Shown one piece after another: positions 1 through 6,819 of a stretch of 64,000 nucleotides of DNA. Source of the stretch: an uncultured Verrucomicrobiae bacterium (GTDB taxonomy: Bacteria > Verrucomicrobiota > Verrucomicrobiia > Chthoniobacterales > JAFAMB01); NCBI GenBank assembly GCA_963837955.1, contig CAWIPH010000002.1, positions 3,552,001 through 3,616,000 on the forward strand. The letters are read 5' to 3'. Below the pieces are notes generated by a model that did not search any database, was not told where the DNA came from, and saw nothing but the letters and a program-made list of their open reading frames with translations. Position 1 is the stretch's first letter; every line of letters starts with the position of its first letter. Made by a program: the position numbers and the translations under genes.

Positions 1-2914
1 CAGAACCATCGACGTCGATTCCACAGTCCGCGGAACTCGTAGCTCGGCAATTTTTTATGATGATCGACGAATTCATAATGATGATTGCGTCGATCTTGAA
101 AAGATTGCCGGCCGCTGGCCGCGCGTCAGCTCCTGTCTGTTCAAAGCTCAACTGTTCTACTTGACCAGATTTGCAATTACGAACCTCGAGCGGAGCATCA
201 TAACTGCTCTGACCAGCCACTCCGGTCGGAGACGCCGAATAACGAACAATCGTTGTCTCCGCGTTTTCGCCCTTTAGGTTTATTCCTTCCTTAAATTTGA
301 GCTTTTCGTTATAAACTCCGGCCCTCACCAGCACGGTATCGCCGGCTTTAGCAGCATCGATAGCTGATTGGATAGCGGCATACTGTTCGGGAACAGCAAG
401 GGTTCTGGCCAAGGAACTTGGGTTTTTCTCCTCCTCGACCGGCTTTTCGTTGCTCTCTTTCTTGACCACTTGCTCCTGCTGGATCTTTTCCGCCGCAGCT
501 TTGAAGAACTGTTGAATCGTGAAATAGCATGCGACAGCCCCAAGGCAGAGTATCAGGAACGTAGCCGCCCCGACCCAAATGATTGGATTCTGCCAAACCG
601 ACTTTGCCGTCCGATCTTTTGGTCGTTTGACGTCACCGAACGGAACCGATCCGCGTTTCAAGTTACTCGCGGAACTCGGCGCCGAAAACGCAGTAGCCGG
701 CAACGGCGGCGGCAAAACGGGAGGTATTACAGTCGATTGTTCGGCCGCCGGCGGACGATCGACCGGCGGGAAGGCGCTACTTCCTGAAGATCGCTGTAAT
801 GGCTCGGGCGAAGCCGAAGCGGATCGACCCAGGATGGCGTTGATGTGGTCGGCAGCTTGTAGAAGGTGCACCTCGAGCGGTGTCGATAACGCGTCCAGCC
901 AATGGATGTTGCCCAGGAAAAACCGAAATGCGCCGGTCGGATCCACTTTCTCGATACGGAAAGGTACCACCGTGACATCGGCGCCAAAGGCGCACTCCAC
1001 CTCCCGCTTGATCTGCTGAGAACGATTGGCGTGAGAGGAGAAGATGAGCAGCATAACGGTTGAGCCGGTGATGGCTTCGACGATCGAATCACCCCAGTCG
1101 GCTCCCGGCGCAATGTCGCGTGGAGCAACCCAACAGCGGATCGATTGCTGCTCAAGAATGGCACAGGCAGCGTCAGCGACTGCTTTATCGTTGCTCGAGT
1201 AACTGATGAAGACATCCTGCGTTTTCGAACTGACGCCCGCAGCCGAGGCCAACGCCCGCTTGAATGCGTTGGCCATTTCGGTCGCTGACCCGAATTCGTC
1301 CACCGCACCTCTCCGCAAAATCACGTTCGCCTCTTCATTGATCTCGGCAAGCGGCGACATCCGCCCAGATGTTTCGACCTGGTTTCTTTGCCCGCCCAGC
1401 AACTCGTAACCGAGCAGACTGAGCAATCGGAGGTAACTGCTTCTTGGGCCAGCAGCGCCGGGGGCGTTAAGCAACGTCACTTCACCTTGCCATGTCGCTG
1501 CGCCCACGGATGTCCCCGAACTCGACTCCACTAATGACAAATCGATTGGATCGACCTTCAGTTCCAACGGCTTCCAAGAATCAAGCCGGCGCTCCGCTAA
1601 CGGGGTCGGGTCATGATCGGCGGATCTGGCAGAACTACGCAAACGAATGCCAGGCAACGTGAGGTCGACTAGTCGCAGACCCTGCCGCTGCGCGTGATCG
1701 GCGAGAGGCGCCAGCCGAGTCAGAAGAATCGCAACTTCCGGAGGAGTCAGCTGTTGGCGGGTTCGCAGGAGATCTTGCAGCGAAAGCCCGAACTCCGCCT
1801 CCTCGACCAGAAAGGTCCGGTCAGCAGTCTCCTCTAACGCATAGACAGTCCGCAACAGCGGGTGTGGTGTATTTCGAACTAGCTCAATTTGGGTCCTCAA
1901 CGCGGCCAGAAAACCTGGACTGGATAGGATGTCGCGATTGAAGATGAAGACTTCGACCGGCTCGTCCGTCCGCTCGTCCAGCGCGTGGAACCATTGTCCT
2001 TGGGGGGTCTCTTCCTGGGGTTCCTTCAGCTTAAAACGCTCGGCTCCAGCCGGAGCGGAAAGATCCCGGAGAGTACCCTCAATCAAGTGGCGGAGTTCGG
2101 CGGCAGTCTGGGGCCGCTTTTCTCGCTCCTTTTCCATCATCCGTTGAACCAACTCAACCACCGACTCCGGCTGGTTCGAGAGCGCTTCCGTCGGAATTGC
2201 TTTGTAGAGATGATAGCTCATCACCTCGCCCGCGGCCCCAGTGAATGGAGGTCTTCCGATCAGGATAAAGAAAAGAGTTGCTCCCAAAGAGTAAATATCC
2301 GAGCGGACGTCCAAATCGCTTTCTCGGATCTGTTCCGGGCTGGCAAACTCGGCCGTGCCGACAAATCCTCCGGCAATCGTGAACGCTCCAGACGCTTCAC
2401 CAGATGGATGGATCTTTTTGGCTAGACCGAAATCAATGATCTTTACGATTTGCTCGTCCTCTTCCTCGGTCAGCATCAAGTTGGCAGGCTTCAGGTCCCT
2501 GTGCACCAGTTGCTGCCGTTCCGCGGCGGCTAACGCCGATGAGATTTGCAACATCAAGCCGAGGGCCTCCCACGGATTGAGCGGTCCGTCACGCTGAATC
2601 TTATCTTTGACGGTGATCCCCTCGATCAACTCCATCACATAAAAGTATTGGTCCTGATCCGTTCCGAGATCGTAGACCGAAGCTATGTTCGGGTGGCGCA
2701 GACCGGCAGCGGAGCGTGCTTCCCGCAAAAATTGTTGGCGGGCGATGTCGTTTCCAAGATAGGCATCGTTGATAATCTTCAGGGCCACCTGGCGCTGTAA
2801 GTTCGTGTCAAACGCCTTGTAGGTCGTGCCCATCGCCCCGGAACCGAGCGCCCATTGCGTTCCATCCGGATGTTGCAAGATCTCGTATTGCTTGTAGCGC
2901 TTGATCTCTGGCAT
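1..2914 (-). CDS. Membrane Ser/Thr protein kinase with second degenerate kinase-like domain, TIR domain, TM helix and C-terminal beta-helix-like domain (3' end outside window)
   Basis: Absent from the ORF track because it runs off the edge. Manual translation from ATG 2914 (MPEIKRYKQYEIL) is open to base 2. Motifs: GSGAMG, VALK, HRDLKPAN, DFG, GTAEFASPE; TIR-type DVFISYSSND...RCWVAPRDIAPGADW...KREV (~835-1216); TM IIWVGAATFLILCLGAVACYFTI (~515-583); VPEQYAAIQSAIDAAKAGDTVLVRAGVYNE. Confidence 0.9.
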   Translation of the reverse strand, partial: MPEIKRYKQYEILQHPDGTQWALGSGAMGTTYKAFDTNLQRQVALKIINDAYLGNDIARQQFLREARSAAGLRHPNIASVYDLGTDQDQYFYVMELIEGITVKDKIQRDGPLNPWEALGLMLQISSALAAAERQQLVHRDLKPANLMLTEEEDEQIVKIIDFGLAKKIHPSGEASGAFTIAGGFVGTAEFASPEQIRESDLDVRSDIYSLGATLFFILIGRPPFTGAAGEVMSYHLYKAIPTEALSNQPESVVELVQRMMEKEREKRPQTAAELRHLIEGTLRDLSAPAGAERFKLKEPQEETPQGQWFHALDERTDEPVEVFIFNRDILSSPGFLAALRTQIELVRNTPHPLLRTVYALEETADRTFLVEEAEFGLSLQDLLRTRQQLTPPEVAILLTRLAPLADHAQRQGLRLVDLTLPGIRLRSSARSADHDPTPLAERRLDSWKPLELKVDPIDLSLVESSSGTSVGAATWQGEVTLLNAPGAAGPRSSYLRLLSLLGYELLGGQRNQVETSGRMSPLAEINEEANVILRRGAVDEFGSATEMANAFKRALASAAGVSSKTQDVFISYSSNDKAVADAACAILEQQSIRCWVAPRDIAPGADWGDSIVEAITGSTVMLLIFSSHANRSQQIKREVECAFGADVTVVPFRIEKVDPTGAFRFFLGNIHWLDALSTPLEVHLLQAADHINAILGRSASASPEPLQRSSGSSAFPPVDRPPAAEQSTVIPPVLPPPLPATAFSAPSSASNLKRGSVPFGDVKRPKDRTAKSVWQNPIIWVGAATFLILCLGAVACYFTIQQFFKAAAEKIQQEQVVKKESNEKPVEEEKNPSSLARTLAVPEQYAAIQSAIDAAKAGDTVLVRAGVYNEKLKFKEGINLKGENAETTIVRYSASPTGVAGQSSYDAPLEVRNCKSGQVEQLSFEQTGADARPAAGNLFKIDAIIIMNSSIIIKNCRATSSADCGIDVDGS

Positions 2915-3014
2915 ACAGGTCCGCTTCGGAAGAGCTGAGTTTTAGGTTAAAATGGGTGCTCTTCAAGGCAGAAAAGCGATACCAGCGGTATCTATCGCAA
3001 CGGATCCCAAAACG

Positions 3015-4148
3015 CTAGATTCGGGCAACGTCTTGCCCAAGCTCATGCAATATCGCTTCGGCTGCACGATGACCTGCTTCTCCTTCCGCTAGCTGAAGGA
3101 TAATCTCGTCCATCGATTTGATCATAGTCGTCCGAGTCGCTTCGTCCGAATAAAGTGACCAAACCGATTCGGCGATCCGTTCCGGAACAGCATGGTGTTG
3201 GACAAATTCCGGAATAATCGGCGGTTTAGCCGCCAGAATATTTGGCATTCCAAGATAATTGATCTTCACCAGCAATCGCCCGGGGACGAAGGTAAACCAC
3301 GAAACTTTGTACAGTAGAACAAACGGAAACCGGAAAAAACTCGCTTCCATCGTGGCAGTGCCGGAAGCAATCATTCCAATGGACGCCCGTTGCATCAGCT
3401 CGTTCGCGTGACGCACTTTGATAGGAATACCAGGAAAGCCGCTCCGACGAGCAACCTCCTCGATTATTTCGCGCAACTTCTCCGATGCCGCCGAGATTTC
3501 GAAAAGGATGGAAGGATCTCGCTCCAACAAGATGCGGGCGGCTTCCAGCATGATCGGCAGTATCCGGCGCACCTCTCGTTCGCGACTTCCCGGCAGCAGG
3601 CCAATCAGGTGGGGATCACGCTGCACCGATATTCGCTTCGCCTCGAGCTCTGCGATCATCGGATGGCCGACAAACTCCGTGCGTAAGCCGCTCGCCTCAT
3701 ACAGTGGCTTTTCGAATGGGAAGATGCACATCATCAGATCGAGATACTTCGCCATTTTCGGAATCCGCCCCCGATTCCAGGCCCACACCTGAGGGCTAAT
3801 GTAATAGATCTTTTTGCCGGGATAGCCCTTGCGGTGCAAGTAATCTGCCAACCGAAGATTGAATCCGGGATAATCTACGAAAATCACCGCGTCTGGCAGG
3901 AGTCGGCTGATCTCCCGGAACATCCGGTTGAACTGCGCACGAAAGTACGGGTATTTCAGCAACACATCCCAGAGACCGACGACAGCTTCGTGGGCCCATT
4001 CGAAGATCTGCGAGCCACCTACCTCCCGCATCCTTGGACCGCCGGCACCGTAAAATTGAATGTCTGGCCGCAACGATTGCAGTTCATGCATCAGTACCGC
4101 GGCGTGCGCGTCGCCACTAGACTCCCCTGCTATGACGTAAAGCTTCAT
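3015..4148 (-). CDS. lpxB: Lipid-A-disaccharide synthase
   Basis: IAGESSGD, DYPGFNLRLA, YYISPQVWAW, FVGHP and LLPGSR motifs. Confidence 0.96.
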   Translation of the reverse strand: MKLYVIAGESSGDAHAAVLMHELQSLRPDIQFYGAGGPRMREVGGSQIFEWAHEAVVGLWDVLLKYPYFRAQFNRMFREISRLLPDAVIFVDYPGFNLRLADYLHRKGYPGKKIYYISPQVWAWNRGRIPKMAKYLDLMMCIFPFEKPLYEASGLRTEFVGHPMIAELEAKRISVQRDPHLIGLLPGSREREVRRILPIMLEAARILLERDPSILFEISAASEKLREIIEEVARRSGFPGIPIKVRHANELMQRASIGMIASGTATMEASFFRFPFVLLYKVSWFTFVPGRLLVKINYLGMPNILAAKPPIIPEFVQHHAVPERIAESVWSLYSDEATRTTMIKSMDEIILQLAEGEAGHRAAEAILHELGQDVARI

Positions 4149-4199
4149 GAACTACCTGCTGTGGACGATAGCGAATTTCTAAAATCCGCCCAGCGGGAA

Positions 4200-5138
4200 T
4201 CACCGTTGTTGGCTGGCAAGAAAGGCTCCGATCAATTCCGTAATTTCGGTGGCTAATTCTAAGGCGGCAGTGGCTCCGGAACCCGAGACTACCGGTTGCA
4301 GTCCGCGGCGCGCGCACTCGACAAAGGACTGCAGTTCTCGTTTTAACGGCTCCTCTTTTTCGATGGCTACGGTTTCTCGAGTTATCTGCCCATCAATTAG
4401 GCGAAAAATTTCTCCGGCTTGTGCCTGGTAATCTAGTGAAAGATAAGCGTCCTCCTGGAAAACGCGGATCTTGCGCATTTTTTCCGGACTGATTCGGCTG
4501 GCCGTCACGTTGGCCACGCAGCCGTTCTCAAAGCGGATACGAGCATTTGCGATATCTTCTCCCTTACTGAGAACGGGGACACCGACCGCATCGATACTCT
4601 GCACCGGAGAACGGACTAGATGCAAAATGATTTCCAAATCATGGATCATCAGATCCAGGACCACGCCGATCTCGACACTACGAAAAGGGTATGGCGTGAG
4701 CCGATGCGATTCAATGAATCGAGGACGAGTGAGTCGCTGTTCAAGGGCGCTCAGCACCGGGTTAAATCGTTCAATATGGCCAACCTGAAGGATCAATGAG
4801 CCTTCTCGGGCCAGCCGGACCAGCTCTTCGGCTTGAACCGGCGTTTCGGTGATCGGTTTTTCAATCAAGACATGCTTTCCGCGCGCGAGGAGTGCTTTCC
4901 CGATCTCGTAGTGAACCGCGGTCGGCGCCGCTACCGTAGCGACGTCGATTAACGAAATAAATTCATCCAACGAATGGGCGACCTTCGCTCCATACTCGGC
5001 AGCGATTGCTTCAGCTGATTCACGATTGATATCAAACACCGCAGAGAACTGCGCATCCGGCAATTCGGCGTAGATGCGGGCATGGTTTTTCCCGATGCTG
5101 CCGACACCTACAACTCCGACTCTGATTAACTCGCTCAT
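4200..5138 (-). CDS. Gfo/Idh/MocA oxidoreductase, probably GnnA-like UDP-GlcNAc 3-dehydrogenase
   Basis: GVGSIG, HVLIEKP, VGHIERFNP and DLMIHD motifs; lies between lpxI and lpxB. Confidence 0.85.
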   Translation of the reverse strand: MSELIRVGVVGVGSIGKNHARIYAELPDAQFSAVFDINRESAEAIAAEYGAKVAHSLDEFISLIDVATVAAPTAVHYEIGKALLARGKHVLIEKPITETPVQAEELVRLAREGSLILQVGHIERFNPVLSALEQRLTRPRFIESHRLTPYPFRSVEIGVVLDLMIHDLEIILHLVRSPVQSIDAVGVPVLSKGEDIANARIRFENGCVANVTASRISPEKMRKIRVFQEDAYLSLDYQAQAGEIFRLIDGQITRETVAIEKEEPLKRELQSFVECARRGLQPVVSGSGATAALELATEITELIGAFLASQQR

Positions 5139-5950
5139 TCGCTCATTCCGTAAATCGAAACTTGATGCTGCTGCGCGGCAGTCTCGACGGCAGGCCGGTC
5201 AAGCAACAGGGTCTTCCCAGCCTCAACTGCCATCAGCTTTACACCCGTCTCGGCCGCAACTTCAATCGTCTGACAGCCAATAACCGGAACATCGAACCGA
5301 AAATCCTGGTTTGGTTTGGATACTTTGACAACCACAGCCAGCCCTTTACCGAGGGCGGCGCCCCGTCGAATCGCTTCATTCGTTCCTTCAAATGCTTCGA
5401 CTGCCAAAACGGTACCATGACGGATGACAACCGTCTGGCCGATGTCCAAACGGCTTACTTCTTTGGCGATGGTAAATCCGTATGCGGCATCGTCCAAGAG
5501 GCGTCGCTTCGCCTTTGGTCCGGCCAACCAACCGGCACCGGCCAGCGACTCCTCCAAAAACGTCGTCGCCGGCAGCAGCGTAACGCCTGCATTGGCCAAT
5601 TCCGTCGCTACTCCTCCAAAAAGGGTCTCCGCATTTCGTTTTTTGAGCGTACTTAACAACATCAGCACCTTAAGATCTGGTCGAAGCTCGAACAAATTCT
5701 TCGGCGCAATCTGCCCTGCCATTATTGCGTGCTGCGCGCCCACCCGATTGAAATATTTTAATAATCGGCTGAGTTGTCCCACGCGCAGCCATTCTATCGT
5801 GTCGGCCGAATCTGCCAAATCGGGACGAGTCTCATTCTCAAACGCAGCCACATGGATCTCGCGAACGCCCTGCTGGCGAGCCGCGCGAGCTACCAACAAC
5901 GGATAGATGCCGTTACCGGCTATAAGTCCAAGAGTGGCTATCTCTGACAT
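5135..5950 (-). CDS. lpxI: UDP-2,3-diacylglucosamine pyrophosphatase LpxI
   Basis: LGLIAGNG, DIGQTVV, AVEAFEGT and QDFRFDVPVIG motifs; lipid A context. Confidence 0.92.
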   Translation of the reverse strand: MSEIATLGLIAGNGIYPLLVARAARQQGVREIHVAAFENETRPDLADSADTIEWLRVGQLSRLLKYFNRVGAQHAIMAGQIAPKNLFELRPDLKVLMLLSTLKKRNAETLFGGVATELANAGVTLLPATTFLEESLAGAGWLAGPKAKRRLLDDAAYGFTIAKEVSRLDIGQTVVIRHGTVLAVEAFEGTNEAIRRGAALGKGLAVVVKVSKPNQDFRFDVPVIGCQTIEVAAETGVKLMAVEAGKTLLLDRPAVETAAQQHQVSIYGMSE

Positions 5951-5991
5951 GCAGAGTCTTAGGTGGTCTGGGTATCATGGGCAGTCAAGCG

Positions 5992-6819
5992 CTACGACGG
6001 ATTCAATTGCCCGGTGAACGTCCAAAAATTTTCGCCAAACTCAGCCTGGAATCGCTGCCGCAACGCTTCGGCCGCTGCGGGACTGCGAGTGATGGCAAAC
6101 ATTGTCGAACCGGATCCTGACATTAACGTGATCTCTGTCTCAGGTTGATTTCGAAACCATAATTTTATTTCCGGGAGCAGCAAATACTTAGGAAAAACCG
6201 CGGGTTCCAAATCATTGCGCAGAGGACCCCAAGCTGACTCCACTTTCTCTCCCCGTTTCCCCTTCTCTGGCAACTTGGTGTACGCAGCGTAAGCGCCTGC
6301 GGTGGATACGACGAAGCCGGGCTTCACCAAGCAGATCCAGCGATCGTCCGGAAACTCTCGCGGTTCCATTTTTTCGCCCCGTCCCGTACACCAGGCCGAC
6401 CGACTTTCGACAAAAAAAGCGACGTCCGAACCCAGCTCGGCCGCGATCGCTCGCAAAGCTTCCAACGGAAGCGCGTCCCCCGCCATGCGATTCAATAGCC
6501 GAAGGGTTGCCGCTGCGTCGCTGCTACCGCCTCCCAATCCAGCTCCGAGGGGAATGTTCTTTTCCAAAACAATCCGGTAAAGCCGCCGGTCTCCACTCAC
6601 TTTTTGGAAGGCGTCGACAGCCCGGATTACCAAGTTCGAATCATCGCTCCGTAACCCTGGGACATTTGATTCAAAAGAAAACTCAGTGGCAGGTTCGATC
6701 GCTAGAATGTCATATAGGGCAATCGGGGTCATCCAGGTGGCCAATTCATGGAAGCCGTCCGAGCGTATGCCGAGAATCTCGAGGGTAAGATTAATCTTGG
6801 CCGGAGTGAATATCCTCAT
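5992..6819 (-). CDS. ispE: 4-diphosphocytidyl-2-C-methyl-D-erythritol kinase
   Basis: PAKINL, KNIPLGAGLGGGSSDAA, GSDVAFF and MSGSGS motifs. Confidence 0.96.
   Translation of the reverse strand: MRIFTPAKINLTLEILGIRSDGFHELATWMTPIALYDILAIEPATEFSFESNVPGLRSDDSNLVIRAVDAFQKVSGDRRLYRIVLEKNIPLGAGLGGGSSDAAATLRLLNRMAGDALPLEALRAIAAELGSDVAFFVESRSAWCTGRGEKMEPREFPDDRWICLVKPGFVVSTAGAYAAYTKLPEKGKRGEKVESAWGPLRNDLEPAVFPKYLLLPEIKLWFRNQPETEITLMSGSGSTMFAITRSPAAAEALRQRFQAEFGENFWTFTGQLNPS

Follow-up and report, generated by a model that had tools for sequence, protein, structure and literature searches.

To our knowledge, proteins that place a kinase and a pseudokinase in tandem have otherwise been known as the JAKs, whose JH1 and JH2 domains put an active kinase and a pseudokinase in one chain, and as plant disease-resistance proteins. 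In bacteria, the PASTA kinases PknB and PknA combine an N-terminal cytoplasmic kinase, a single transmembrane helix and a C-terminal extracytoplasmic sensor. Here we describe a gene from a soil Verrucomicrobiota bacterium (genome of 5.6 Mb in two contigs) that lies at the edge of a stretch of 64,000 nucleotides (the window, G000:C2:3552001-3616000) and encodes a protein of 1301 residues, P0002. Its plan is that of PknB and PknA, but with a dead kinase copy and a TIR domain added before the membrane and a beta-helix in place of the PASTA repeats; like the JAKs, it joins an active-looking kinase to a pseudokinase. Based on sequence comparison and structure prediction, P0002 is a single chain made up of an active-looking kinase, a pseudokinase of kinase fold, a TIR domain, a linker, a transmembrane helix of N-in/C-out orientation and a beta-helix, and it belongs to a large family of kinase-pseudokinase receptors in which the C-terminal sensors are interchangeable and a TIR is rare.

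Within the window the gene is an open frame of 971 residues on the minus strand (2..2914), with an ATG at 2914 and no stop as far as the first base. The initial annotation had reported a frame of at least 971 codons that was absent from its track of open reading frames (ORFs), and both statements hold: the track contains closed ORFs, and this frame was missed because it is open at the window edge. Extension of the contig, which that annotation had proposed, carries the frame to a stop and yields the full gene at L003:11009..14914 (minus strand) of the extended DNA. All the motifs that had been quoted, including WFHALDERTDEPVEVFIF at residues 308-325, lie at the places given for them in P0002. 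The parts of the gene, all on the minus strand, are as follows (P0003 is a close TIR-bearing relative).

2..2914, minus: window portion of the gene, the first 971 of 1301 codons
L003:11009-12001, minus: remaining 330 codons and stop, before the first base of the window
2087..2851, minus: Hanks-type Ser/Thr kinase domain, residues 22-276 (Pfam Pkinase, E 7.1e-49)
1229..2047, minus: predicted pseudokinase domain, residues 290-562 (hhalign, AlphaFold2, Foldseek)
830..1219, minus: TIR domain, residues 566-695, last helix 680-695 (Pfam TIR_2, profile against the Protein Data Bank (PDB), AlphaFold2, Foldseek)
1001..1003, minus: codon of E638, the Glu position of the W-x-x-x-E motif (alignment to related and solved TIRs)
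584..829, minus: Pro/Ser-rich, weakly conserved linker, residues 696-777, ending in the basic patch KRPKDRTAK (39% identical to that of P0003, the TIR being 89% identical)
515..583, minus: single predicted transmembrane helix, residues 778-800, N-terminus inside (Kyte-Doolittle 19-residue mean 2.42; flank charges)
2..514, minus: predicted extracytoplasmic charged linker, residues 801-840, and start of the beta-helix, residues 841-971 (Pfam Beta_helix, NosD)

A misassembly joining separate genes is excluded by independent assemblies. A contig of 2192 nucleotides from each of two public runs covers window positions 549-2740 without gaps and with 32-39 substitutions; these contigs represent a slightly different strain, keep the order transmembrane helix-linker-TIR-pseudokinase-kinase and bridge all the cytoplasmic domain junctions. 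The identical domain order is found in three independent metagenome proteins from other assemblies.

The N-terminal domain, initially described as an intact Hanks kinase, fully deserves that description. Pfam Pkinase (PF00069) matches residues 22-276 with 167 bits against a cut-off of 31.7, and the motifs are all in place: G-loop GSGAMG (24-29), K46, HRDLKPAN (138-145), DFG (161-163) and SPE (192-194). The catalytic elements (G-loop, Lys, HRD Asp, Asn and DFG Asp) are invariant across 30 relatives and, with a complete motif set, the kinase of P0002 looks active. The best NCBIfam model is PknB-type (1.7e-78; 265 bits, the equivalog cut-off being 450).

The middle region is less obvious at first sight, as the segment 286-565 alone matched no Pfam family, even at E 10. 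Nevertheless, several lines of comparison converge on a kinase fold. All 37 PDB sequences retrieved with the middle region by phmmer at E<=10 are protein kinases, headed by MELK (0.002) and PknB (0.01), and the alignments are in register (VEVF on VAIK, LVDL on HRDL). When the middle-region profile (44 members) was aligned by hhalign with the profile of the N-terminal kinases of the same proteins, the match reached 96.4% probability (E 1.1e-9) over 231 columns and both lobes, and the hidden Markov model of the middle region also picks up the genuine kinase in P0002 (E 3.6e-11). An AlphaFold2 model built from a 41-row alignment (mean predicted local-distance difference test (pLDDT) 83.7, predicted template-modelling score (pTM) 0.82) shows a kinase-like order of strands and helices and a bilobal fold. 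With this model, the Foldseek matches in the PDB number at least 500 at E<=0.001, the top ones being PknB and PknA of Mycobacterium tuberculosis (E 4e-11 to 2e-10, template-modelling scores of 0.6-0.7, ~290 columns). The structural check that had been suggested for residues ~290-560 thus returns a kinase fold.

In the hhalign register, the beta3 Lys position is occupied by F323 (aligned with K46), the catalytic-loop Asn by G422 (aligned with N145), and the G-loop is degenerate; LVDLTLPG, at residues 415-422, stands in place of HRDLKPxN. The Asp at the HRD position (D417, reading LVD) and that at the DFG position (D458, reading DLS) are retained. The second kinase-shaped region and its LVDLTLPG had therefore been recognized correctly, but the statement that no DFG is present needs amending, since the DFG Asp is kept within DLS. 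A pseudokinase is taken here as a kinase fold without at least one of the beta3 Lys, the HRD Asp and the DFG Asp. Among 161 full-length middle domains (of 188 proteins matched), none combines all four catalytic residues (Lys/Asp/Asn/Asp), and the place of the catalytic-loop Asn is taken by another residue throughout (Gly in 72, Gln in 42, Lys in 26). By the usual sequence definition, the middle domain is thus a pseudokinase family-wide. No Pfam model covers the dead kinase copy in P0002 or in the three close relatives scanned (P0008, P0025, P0039), while the Pkinase model does match it as a second stretch in several distant members. PF22842 is a precomputed match in some relatives; scans of P0008, P0025 and P0039 at E<=0.01 did not recover it in any of the three.

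The kinase-pseudokinase pair is not peculiar to this genome. A word-indexed search with residues 285-700, limited to proteins of 715-2277 residues (so that fragments bearing the TIR junction would have been missed), returned 57 proteins. Forty-one of them, the query included, share the kinase and the middle region, and four of these 41 have a TIR (P0002, P0003, P0004 and P0007). The other 16 match through the TIR alone; 15 are kinase-free and carry FGE-sulfatase, caspase, WD40, TPR or STAND modules, the exception being P0055, which combines a TIR and a kinase with a STAND ATPase but contains no middle domain. An exhaustive phmmer search with the middle region against 1.84 billion representatives (clusters at 50% identity) gave 444 matches at E<=1e-3 and 154 at E<=1e-10; among the best 150 of the 444, the match nearly always falls at ~320-590 of a protein of ~1000 residues, just after an N-terminal kinase. 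Pfam architecture scans of 45 proteins (43 representatives, P0008 and P0055) revealed a constant kinase and middle domain followed by Sel1, PEGA, TPR, WD40, FGE-sulfatase or beta-helix modules, and 67 of the 85 representatives of at least 700 residues have a transmembrane helix. The survey of architectures envisaged at the outset shows a large family built on the pair, in which an internal TIR is rare. In the phylum, the middle domain occurs at E<=1e-5 in nine of 401 sampled genomes, this one included, although distant members may have been missed by this single-protein query. Three paralogs in the same genome share the kinase-pseudokinase front end and end in Sel1, PEGA or FGE-sulfatase modules.

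L016:1683-4883 (G000:C1 ~260.2-263.4 kb), plus: paralog
L017:2955-6227 (G000:C2 ~4595.5-4598.7 kb), minus: paralog
L018:1890-4706 (G000:C2 ~1850.4-1853.2 kb), plus: paralog

In the PEGA paralog, the Pfam Pkinase model gives two stretches.

The TIR domain itself is well supported. TIR_2 (PF13676) matches residues 568-676 (E 1.9e-19; 70.8 bits against a cut-off of 28; E 4e-21 for the segment alone), with DVFISYSS at 567-574 and KREV at 636-639. A profile of 19 related TIRs gave 56 matches in the PDB at E<=0.1, which are TIR proteins going by their names (one of the 56 is named merely 'Tetratricopeptide repeat protein'). They include the oyster TIR-STING (3.4e-11), the CRISPR-associated NAD+-cleaving enzyme (NADase) Cat1 (4.6e-8), Hydra TRR-2, the Toll-like receptors TLR6 and TLR1/2, MAL, ROQ1, MyD88, RPV1/RUN1, TIR-1/SARM1, AbTIR and the TIR-APAZ protein of SPARTA. 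The AlphaFold2 model of the domain has a pLDDT of 92.1, and TIR structures head the 188 matches that Foldseek gives for it at E<=1e-3: RPP1, SNC1, RPS4, TRR-2, BtpA, SPARTA, SARM1 and RUN1 are among those matched, with TMq 0.61-0.79 in the ten top-ranked rows, and TMq for SPARTA, AbTir and SpbK is 0.64-0.78 among the rows listed. The initial annotation had placed a Glu at the expected catalytic position within KREV, and the codon of E638 is exactly there. This residue aligns with the Glu of the W-x-x-x-E motif in TIR-STING, TLR6 and Cat1, the three printed alignments that carry the motif, and a Glu is kept at this position in 29 of 31 related TIRs.

P0002 is the one kinase-fused protein among ten TIR_2 genes above the Pfam cut-off in this genome (open frames of 614-1310 residues). 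The locus L019:436-8665 (G000:C2:2031436-2039665) holds an IS110-family transposase and, after it, a tandem of two TIR_2-TPR genes encoding 634 and 724 residues, whose TIRs are 50-52% identical to that of P0002; the opposite strand encodes a TPR-S and adenylate/guanylate cyclase protein. A 59-nucleotide stretch of this locus is 80% identical to the P0002 TIR in DNA.

Beyond the TIR, the Pro-rich linker, basic patch and N-in/C-out helix that had been read from the sequence agree with the hydrophobicity profile and the flank charges. The net charge is +4 on the N-terminal side of the predicted helix and 0 on the C-terminal side, and an N-in/C-out topology fits these positive-inside flanks. The pectinesterase/NosD-style beta-helix start was also correctly identified, and the predicted beta-helix continues to residue 1301: Pfam Beta_helix (PF13229, E 5.1e-35) and NosD (PF05048, E 1.8e-19) match at ~850-1250 (120.9 bits against a cut-off of 25.9), so that the three families named for checking, Pkinase, TIR_2 and Beta_helix, are all matched in P0002. 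The TIGR03804 repeat matches in eight stretches. Residues 980-1260 (L003:11132-11975, outside the window) contain 13 N-x-C-x-x-N motifs at a regular spacing of 22-24 residues, and the ectodomain has 14 Cys, whereas the cytoplasmic part, 777 residues long, has three. Relatives (proteins of 894-1301 residues) vary in how many repeat pairs they have. The beta-helix need not always face outwards. Fifteen of the 41 beta-helix-family relatives (clade B: P0004, P0007 and P0027-P0039, two of them TIR-bearing) have no transmembrane helix, and their beta-helix should therefore be cytoplasmic. Judging from this clade, the sensor domain of the family can also work inside the cell.

The history of the TIR was examined on a host tree of 42 rows, built from the kinase and middle region with the TIR columns excluded. 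The four TIR-bearing proteins are scattered on it: P0002 and P0003 branch early in the transmembrane clade A, the other two in clade B. The distribution requires at least four changes, or three if the starred branches alone are trusted. In a tree of 30 TIR domains, the four internal TIRs form one clade (Shimodaira-Hasegawa-like approximate likelihood ratio test (SH-aLRT) 99) which repeats the host split, (P0002, P0003) against (P0004, P0007). Between the clades, the TIR (54% and 48% identity) has diverged about as far as the pseudokinase (56% and 54%). The simplest reading of these trees is a single internal TIR fusion before the split of clades A and B, followed by several losses.

A related TIR also occurs at the N-terminus, before the kinase, in nine of 148 representatives; of these nine, one ends in Sel1, three end in TPR, P0143 ends in a beta-helix and P0178 in FGE-sulfatase, and in the other three Pfam named no C-terminal domain. 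Seven of the eight N-terminal TIRs in the tree form a clade of their own (SH-aLRT 94), which points to a second, independent TIR fusion. That the TIR joined the same chassis twice, at two positions, speaks for TIR and kinase signalling being functionally linked in bacteria, and it parallels Toll/IRAK by convergence.

Where the TIR is present, it is constrained. It is the best conserved domain between P0002 and P0003 (89% identity, whereas the kinase reaches 82%, the pseudokinase 72% and the beta-helix 68%). The 40 listed strain differences, of 74, are distributed as follows.

TIR: 7 synonymous, 2 non-synonymous
Pseudokinase: 13 synonymous, 1 non-synonymous
Linker: 1 synonymous, 3 non-synonymous
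Ectodomain: 8 synonymous, 4 non-synonymous

From these comparisons, the TIR is under purifying selection and is functional rather than decaying. A candidate relic of the TIR tail in the TIR-less junctions of clade A ("ETH-QQ-A-H---ILG") was rejected: a tail profile built from 12 stand-alone TIR proteins failed to detect it, matching one of 22 such junctions at E 12, with scores no different in clade B and the outgroup. The relic idea rests on transitive alignment alone and is not used as evidence here.

We propose, with a probability of roughly one half, that P0002 is a single-pass receptor Ser/Thr kinase with a pseudokinase, in which clustering driven by the beta-helix activates both the kinase and an NAD+-cleaving TIR. 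Outside the cell, the beta-helix would bind a ligand, perhaps a glycan or a component of the envelope, which would cluster the receptors. Clustering would let the kinase domains phosphorylate one another, with the pseudokinase as a partner in allosteric control or dimerisation, and would bring the membrane-proximal TIRs together. The clustered TIRs might then cleave NAD+, as other bacterial TIRs that keep the Glu do, and this cleavage would either yield a signal derived from ADP-ribose or lower NAD+. The TIR would thus give the kinase receptor a second output, one that it can do without.

Several observations weigh against this proposal. The Trp of the W-x-x-x-E motif is Gln in this family (Q634 in P0002), though it is Trp in TIR-STING, TLR6 and Cat1, and TLR6 shares the Glu at the same aligned position. 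Since clade B has no transmembrane helix, ligand-induced clustering across the membrane cannot be a general mechanism. The hint of a ligand is slight, an AlgG C5-epimerase match to the ectodomain at E 1e-4; together with the link to lipid A genes, it gives a weak carbohydrate hint for the polysaccharide ligand that had been suggested. Finally, the closest named relative, a Verrucomicrobiota metagenome-assembled genome (MAG), has an ortholog (L020; 74% identical over the best aligned middle-region segment) that is syntenic yet TIR-less, and no TIR was found in the 26 family-member loci fetched. As the TIR is missing from 37 of the 41 close relatives and from this syntenic ortholog, it is not needed for the core function. 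Such same-locus orthologs with and without the TIR make its contribution to the receptor output directly testable, as a natural control.

The main rival to an NAD+-cleaving TIR, which we consider distinctly less probable while giving it real weight, is that the domain serves non-enzymatic assembly, as in TLRs, MyD88 and MAL, with the kinase as the sole enzymatic output. A scaffold TIR could aid oligomerisation of the receptor or recruit some of the nine other TIR proteins (TIR-TPR and others) as adaptors; the ten TIR_2 genes of the genome, two of them TIR-TPR genes with TIRs 50-52% identical to that of P0002, would be in line with this. So would the missing Trp before the Glu and the presence of the scaffolding TIRs Hydra TRR-2, TLR6, TLR1/2, MAL and MyD88 among the best sequence matches. 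By fold, though, NADase TIRs match equally (SARM1, RUN1, SPARTA, AbTir, SpbK), and the bacterial TIRs tested so far are mostly NADases. The Glu speaks to both sides. According to the available part of a published survey of TIR domains, it is required for NADase activity, yet more than 70% of TIRs overall have it, and more than 90% of those in NADase groups (PMC7075850), and the same portion of that source describes it as common in non-enzymatic TIRs too (PMC7075850). The Glu is thus necessary but insufficient as evidence of NADase activity. Its conservation in 29 of 31 related TIRs is nonetheless a frequency of the order (>90%) reported for NADase groups in the accessible text (PMC7075850), which counts against a purely scaffolding domain.

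The surroundings of the gene bear on a further alternative. The kinase-TIR gene sits between lpxB and a HIT-family gene on the same strand.

3015..4148, minus: lpxB, upstream neighbour of the kinase-TIR gene (ORFs; Pfam on the syntenic orthologs in L020)
4200-5138, minus: Gfo/Idh/MocA oxidoreductase gene, upstream of lpxB
5135-5950, minus: lpxI, upstream of the oxidoreductase gene

The order lpxI-oxidoreductase-lpxB-kinase gene-HIT is kept in all three close clade-A relatives with enough flank, namely the Verrucomicrobiota MAG and two metagenome contigs; it occurs in none of four clade-B loci and none of 19 more distant loci. No defence or mobile genes were seen beside the kinase-TIR gene, the cluster being one of lipid A genes.

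An anti-phage or abortive-infection role would make the kinase-pseudokinase pair a detector of infection, the pseudokinase a decoy for a phage factor in the manner of plant tandem kinases, and the TIR an effector that depletes NAD+ and stops the cell. Such a role is possible, but the context gives it no support and we regard it as unlikely. The PADLOC defence kinase models PD-T4-6, mad6 and MkoA do match P0002 (best E 1.9e-79), yet among the best 25 of 40 families the matches are confined to residues 22-296, the generic kinase domain; NCBIfam MAD6 reaches 128 bits against a cut-off of 460, and no methylation or defence neighbours of the PD-T4-6/MADS kind were seen beside the gene. The independent fusion of a TIR to the pair on two occasions is compatible with a defence function, and so is the immune role of plant tandem kinases, as far as the partial descriptions of them go. 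The TIRs of this clade also occur in architectures of conflict type, with caspase, WD40, TPR and FGE-sulfatase modules, to judge from the portion of the conflict-system survey available (PMC7159879). On the other hand, the neighbours lpxI, oxidoreductase, lpxB and HIT are kept in the three close relatives whether or not these have a TIR, and no mobile or defence genes adjoin. Moreover, because the host and TIR trees mirror each other, the family is stable and vertically inherited, and an extracytoplasmic sensor with a transmembrane helix would suit a signal from outside better than a phage cue arising within the cell.

That the TIR is a functionless relic on its way out is highly improbable: its repeated loss (missing from 37 of 41 close relatives, with at least 3-4 changes on the host tree) is outweighed by its standing as the best conserved domain between P0002 and P0003 (89%), the ratio of seven synonymous to two non-synonymous strain differences, the confident model (pLDDT 92.1) and the conserved Glu.

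Some further features of the region may be mentioned. Window positions 3015-6819 (minus strand) hold co-directional lpxB, oxidoreductase and lpxI genes and then an ORF that resembles ispE by eye. In a close relative with 73% identity and the same synteny (L021:4008-6023), the frame ends after 671 residues and the HIT gene lies 1.2 kb further on; this short frame may be due to a frameshift, to a gene that is broken or to an error of assembly. The interval separating lpxB from the kinase gene contains a terminator-like hairpin that has a T-rich tail (window 2978-2992, minus strand; L003 14978-14992). The scan for such signals gave numbers within chance (two promoter-like sites against 2.4 expected and four terminator-like sites against 6.1 expected), and nothing follows from it for operon structure. 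Approximately 5 kb beyond the HIT gene, L003:2337-6616 (plus strand) holds, by eye, an RND-type efflux pump gene (1043 residues) and a membrane-fusion-type gene.

Of the described bacterial pseudokinase families (ActPs1-3, GLW, CP1, DYD and DLHK), the last three were compared with the pseudokinase of P0002. By their descriptions in the available part of a 2025 review of bacterial pseudokinases, CP1 proteins are cytosolic and carry COG3899 (PMC12599244), DYD proteins are from Actinobacteria and Firmicutes and have Arg in place of Lys (PMC12599244), and DLHK proteins are helicase-linked and keep the Asn (PMC12599244); the P0002 pseudokinase fits none of the three (PMC12599244). The text of that review contains none of the terms tandem, TIR, Verrucomicrobi, Planctomycet, Sel1 and beta-helix (PMC12599244). 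The eLife 2020 survey of conflict systems, in the portion available, counts TIR, FGS and kinases among the effector or binding modules, and pseudokinases and beta-helices are unmentioned there (PMC7159879). Our literature search, whose coverage of subscription journals was incomplete, found no paper on a bacterial protein with TIR, kinase and pseudokinase. The tandem kinase-pseudokinase receptor family thus appears to be undescribed, and its recognition exposes a large bacterial receptor family built on a kinase and a dead kinase copy, with 444 representative clusters.

The TIR fold and the Glu at the catalytic position are shared with the bacterial TIR NADases (Thoeris ThsB, SPARTA, Cat1, AbTir, SpbK), but P0002 has neither a partner effector nor defence neighbours, and its TIR is embedded in a receptor kinase. 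It does not belong to Thoeris: the ThsB_TIR match is below the cut-off (E 0.024), that of ThcB4 of Thoeris type III has E 0.015 and 14 bits against 220, and the neighbours are lpxB and HIT. Closer at hand, the N-terminal-TIR relatives P0143 (beta-helix) and P0178 (FGE-sulfatase) have the same four kinds of domain, a homologous pseudokinase and a related TIR; in P0002 the TIR adjoins the membrane instead of the N-terminus. The plant tandem kinases WTK1/Yr15 and Sr62, as partially described, likewise hold an active kinase and a pseudokinase in one polypeptide, whereas P0002 is bacterial, has its kinase first and is membrane-anchored with a sensor; homology was compared at the level of the kinase superfamily. 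On these comparisons, the likeness to the plant tandem kinases and to JAK is one of logic and not of descent.

The same distinction applies to Toll/IL-1R, MyD88 and IRAK signalling, of which the initial annotation had brought in Toll and IRAK. The shared logic stands: a sensor outside the cell, a transmembrane helix, a membrane-proximal TIR, and then a kinase and a pseudokinase. Common descent does not, since the kinase and pseudokinase are closest to PknB and PknA and not to IRAK; the likeness is thus an analogy. P0002 is one chain in reversed orientation, with its N-terminus inside, and has no leucine-rich repeat (LRR) or immunoglobulin ectodomains and no death domains; a Toll-like receptor architecture (LRR ectodomain, type I transmembrane helix, C-terminal TIR) differs from its beta-helix and internal TIR. 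A far-reaching and rather doubtful extension of the analogy would make P0002 a one-chain bacterial counterpart of both the Toll-to-IRAK pathway and the plant tandem-kinase sensors, in which a cue from outside or from the envelope, or a decoy-bound phage factor, would switch on a kinase cascade and a NAD-derived messenger made by the TIR and read by other proteins of this TIR-rich genome. If so, the gain of a TIR twice and its loss several times on the same chassis would record an arms race.

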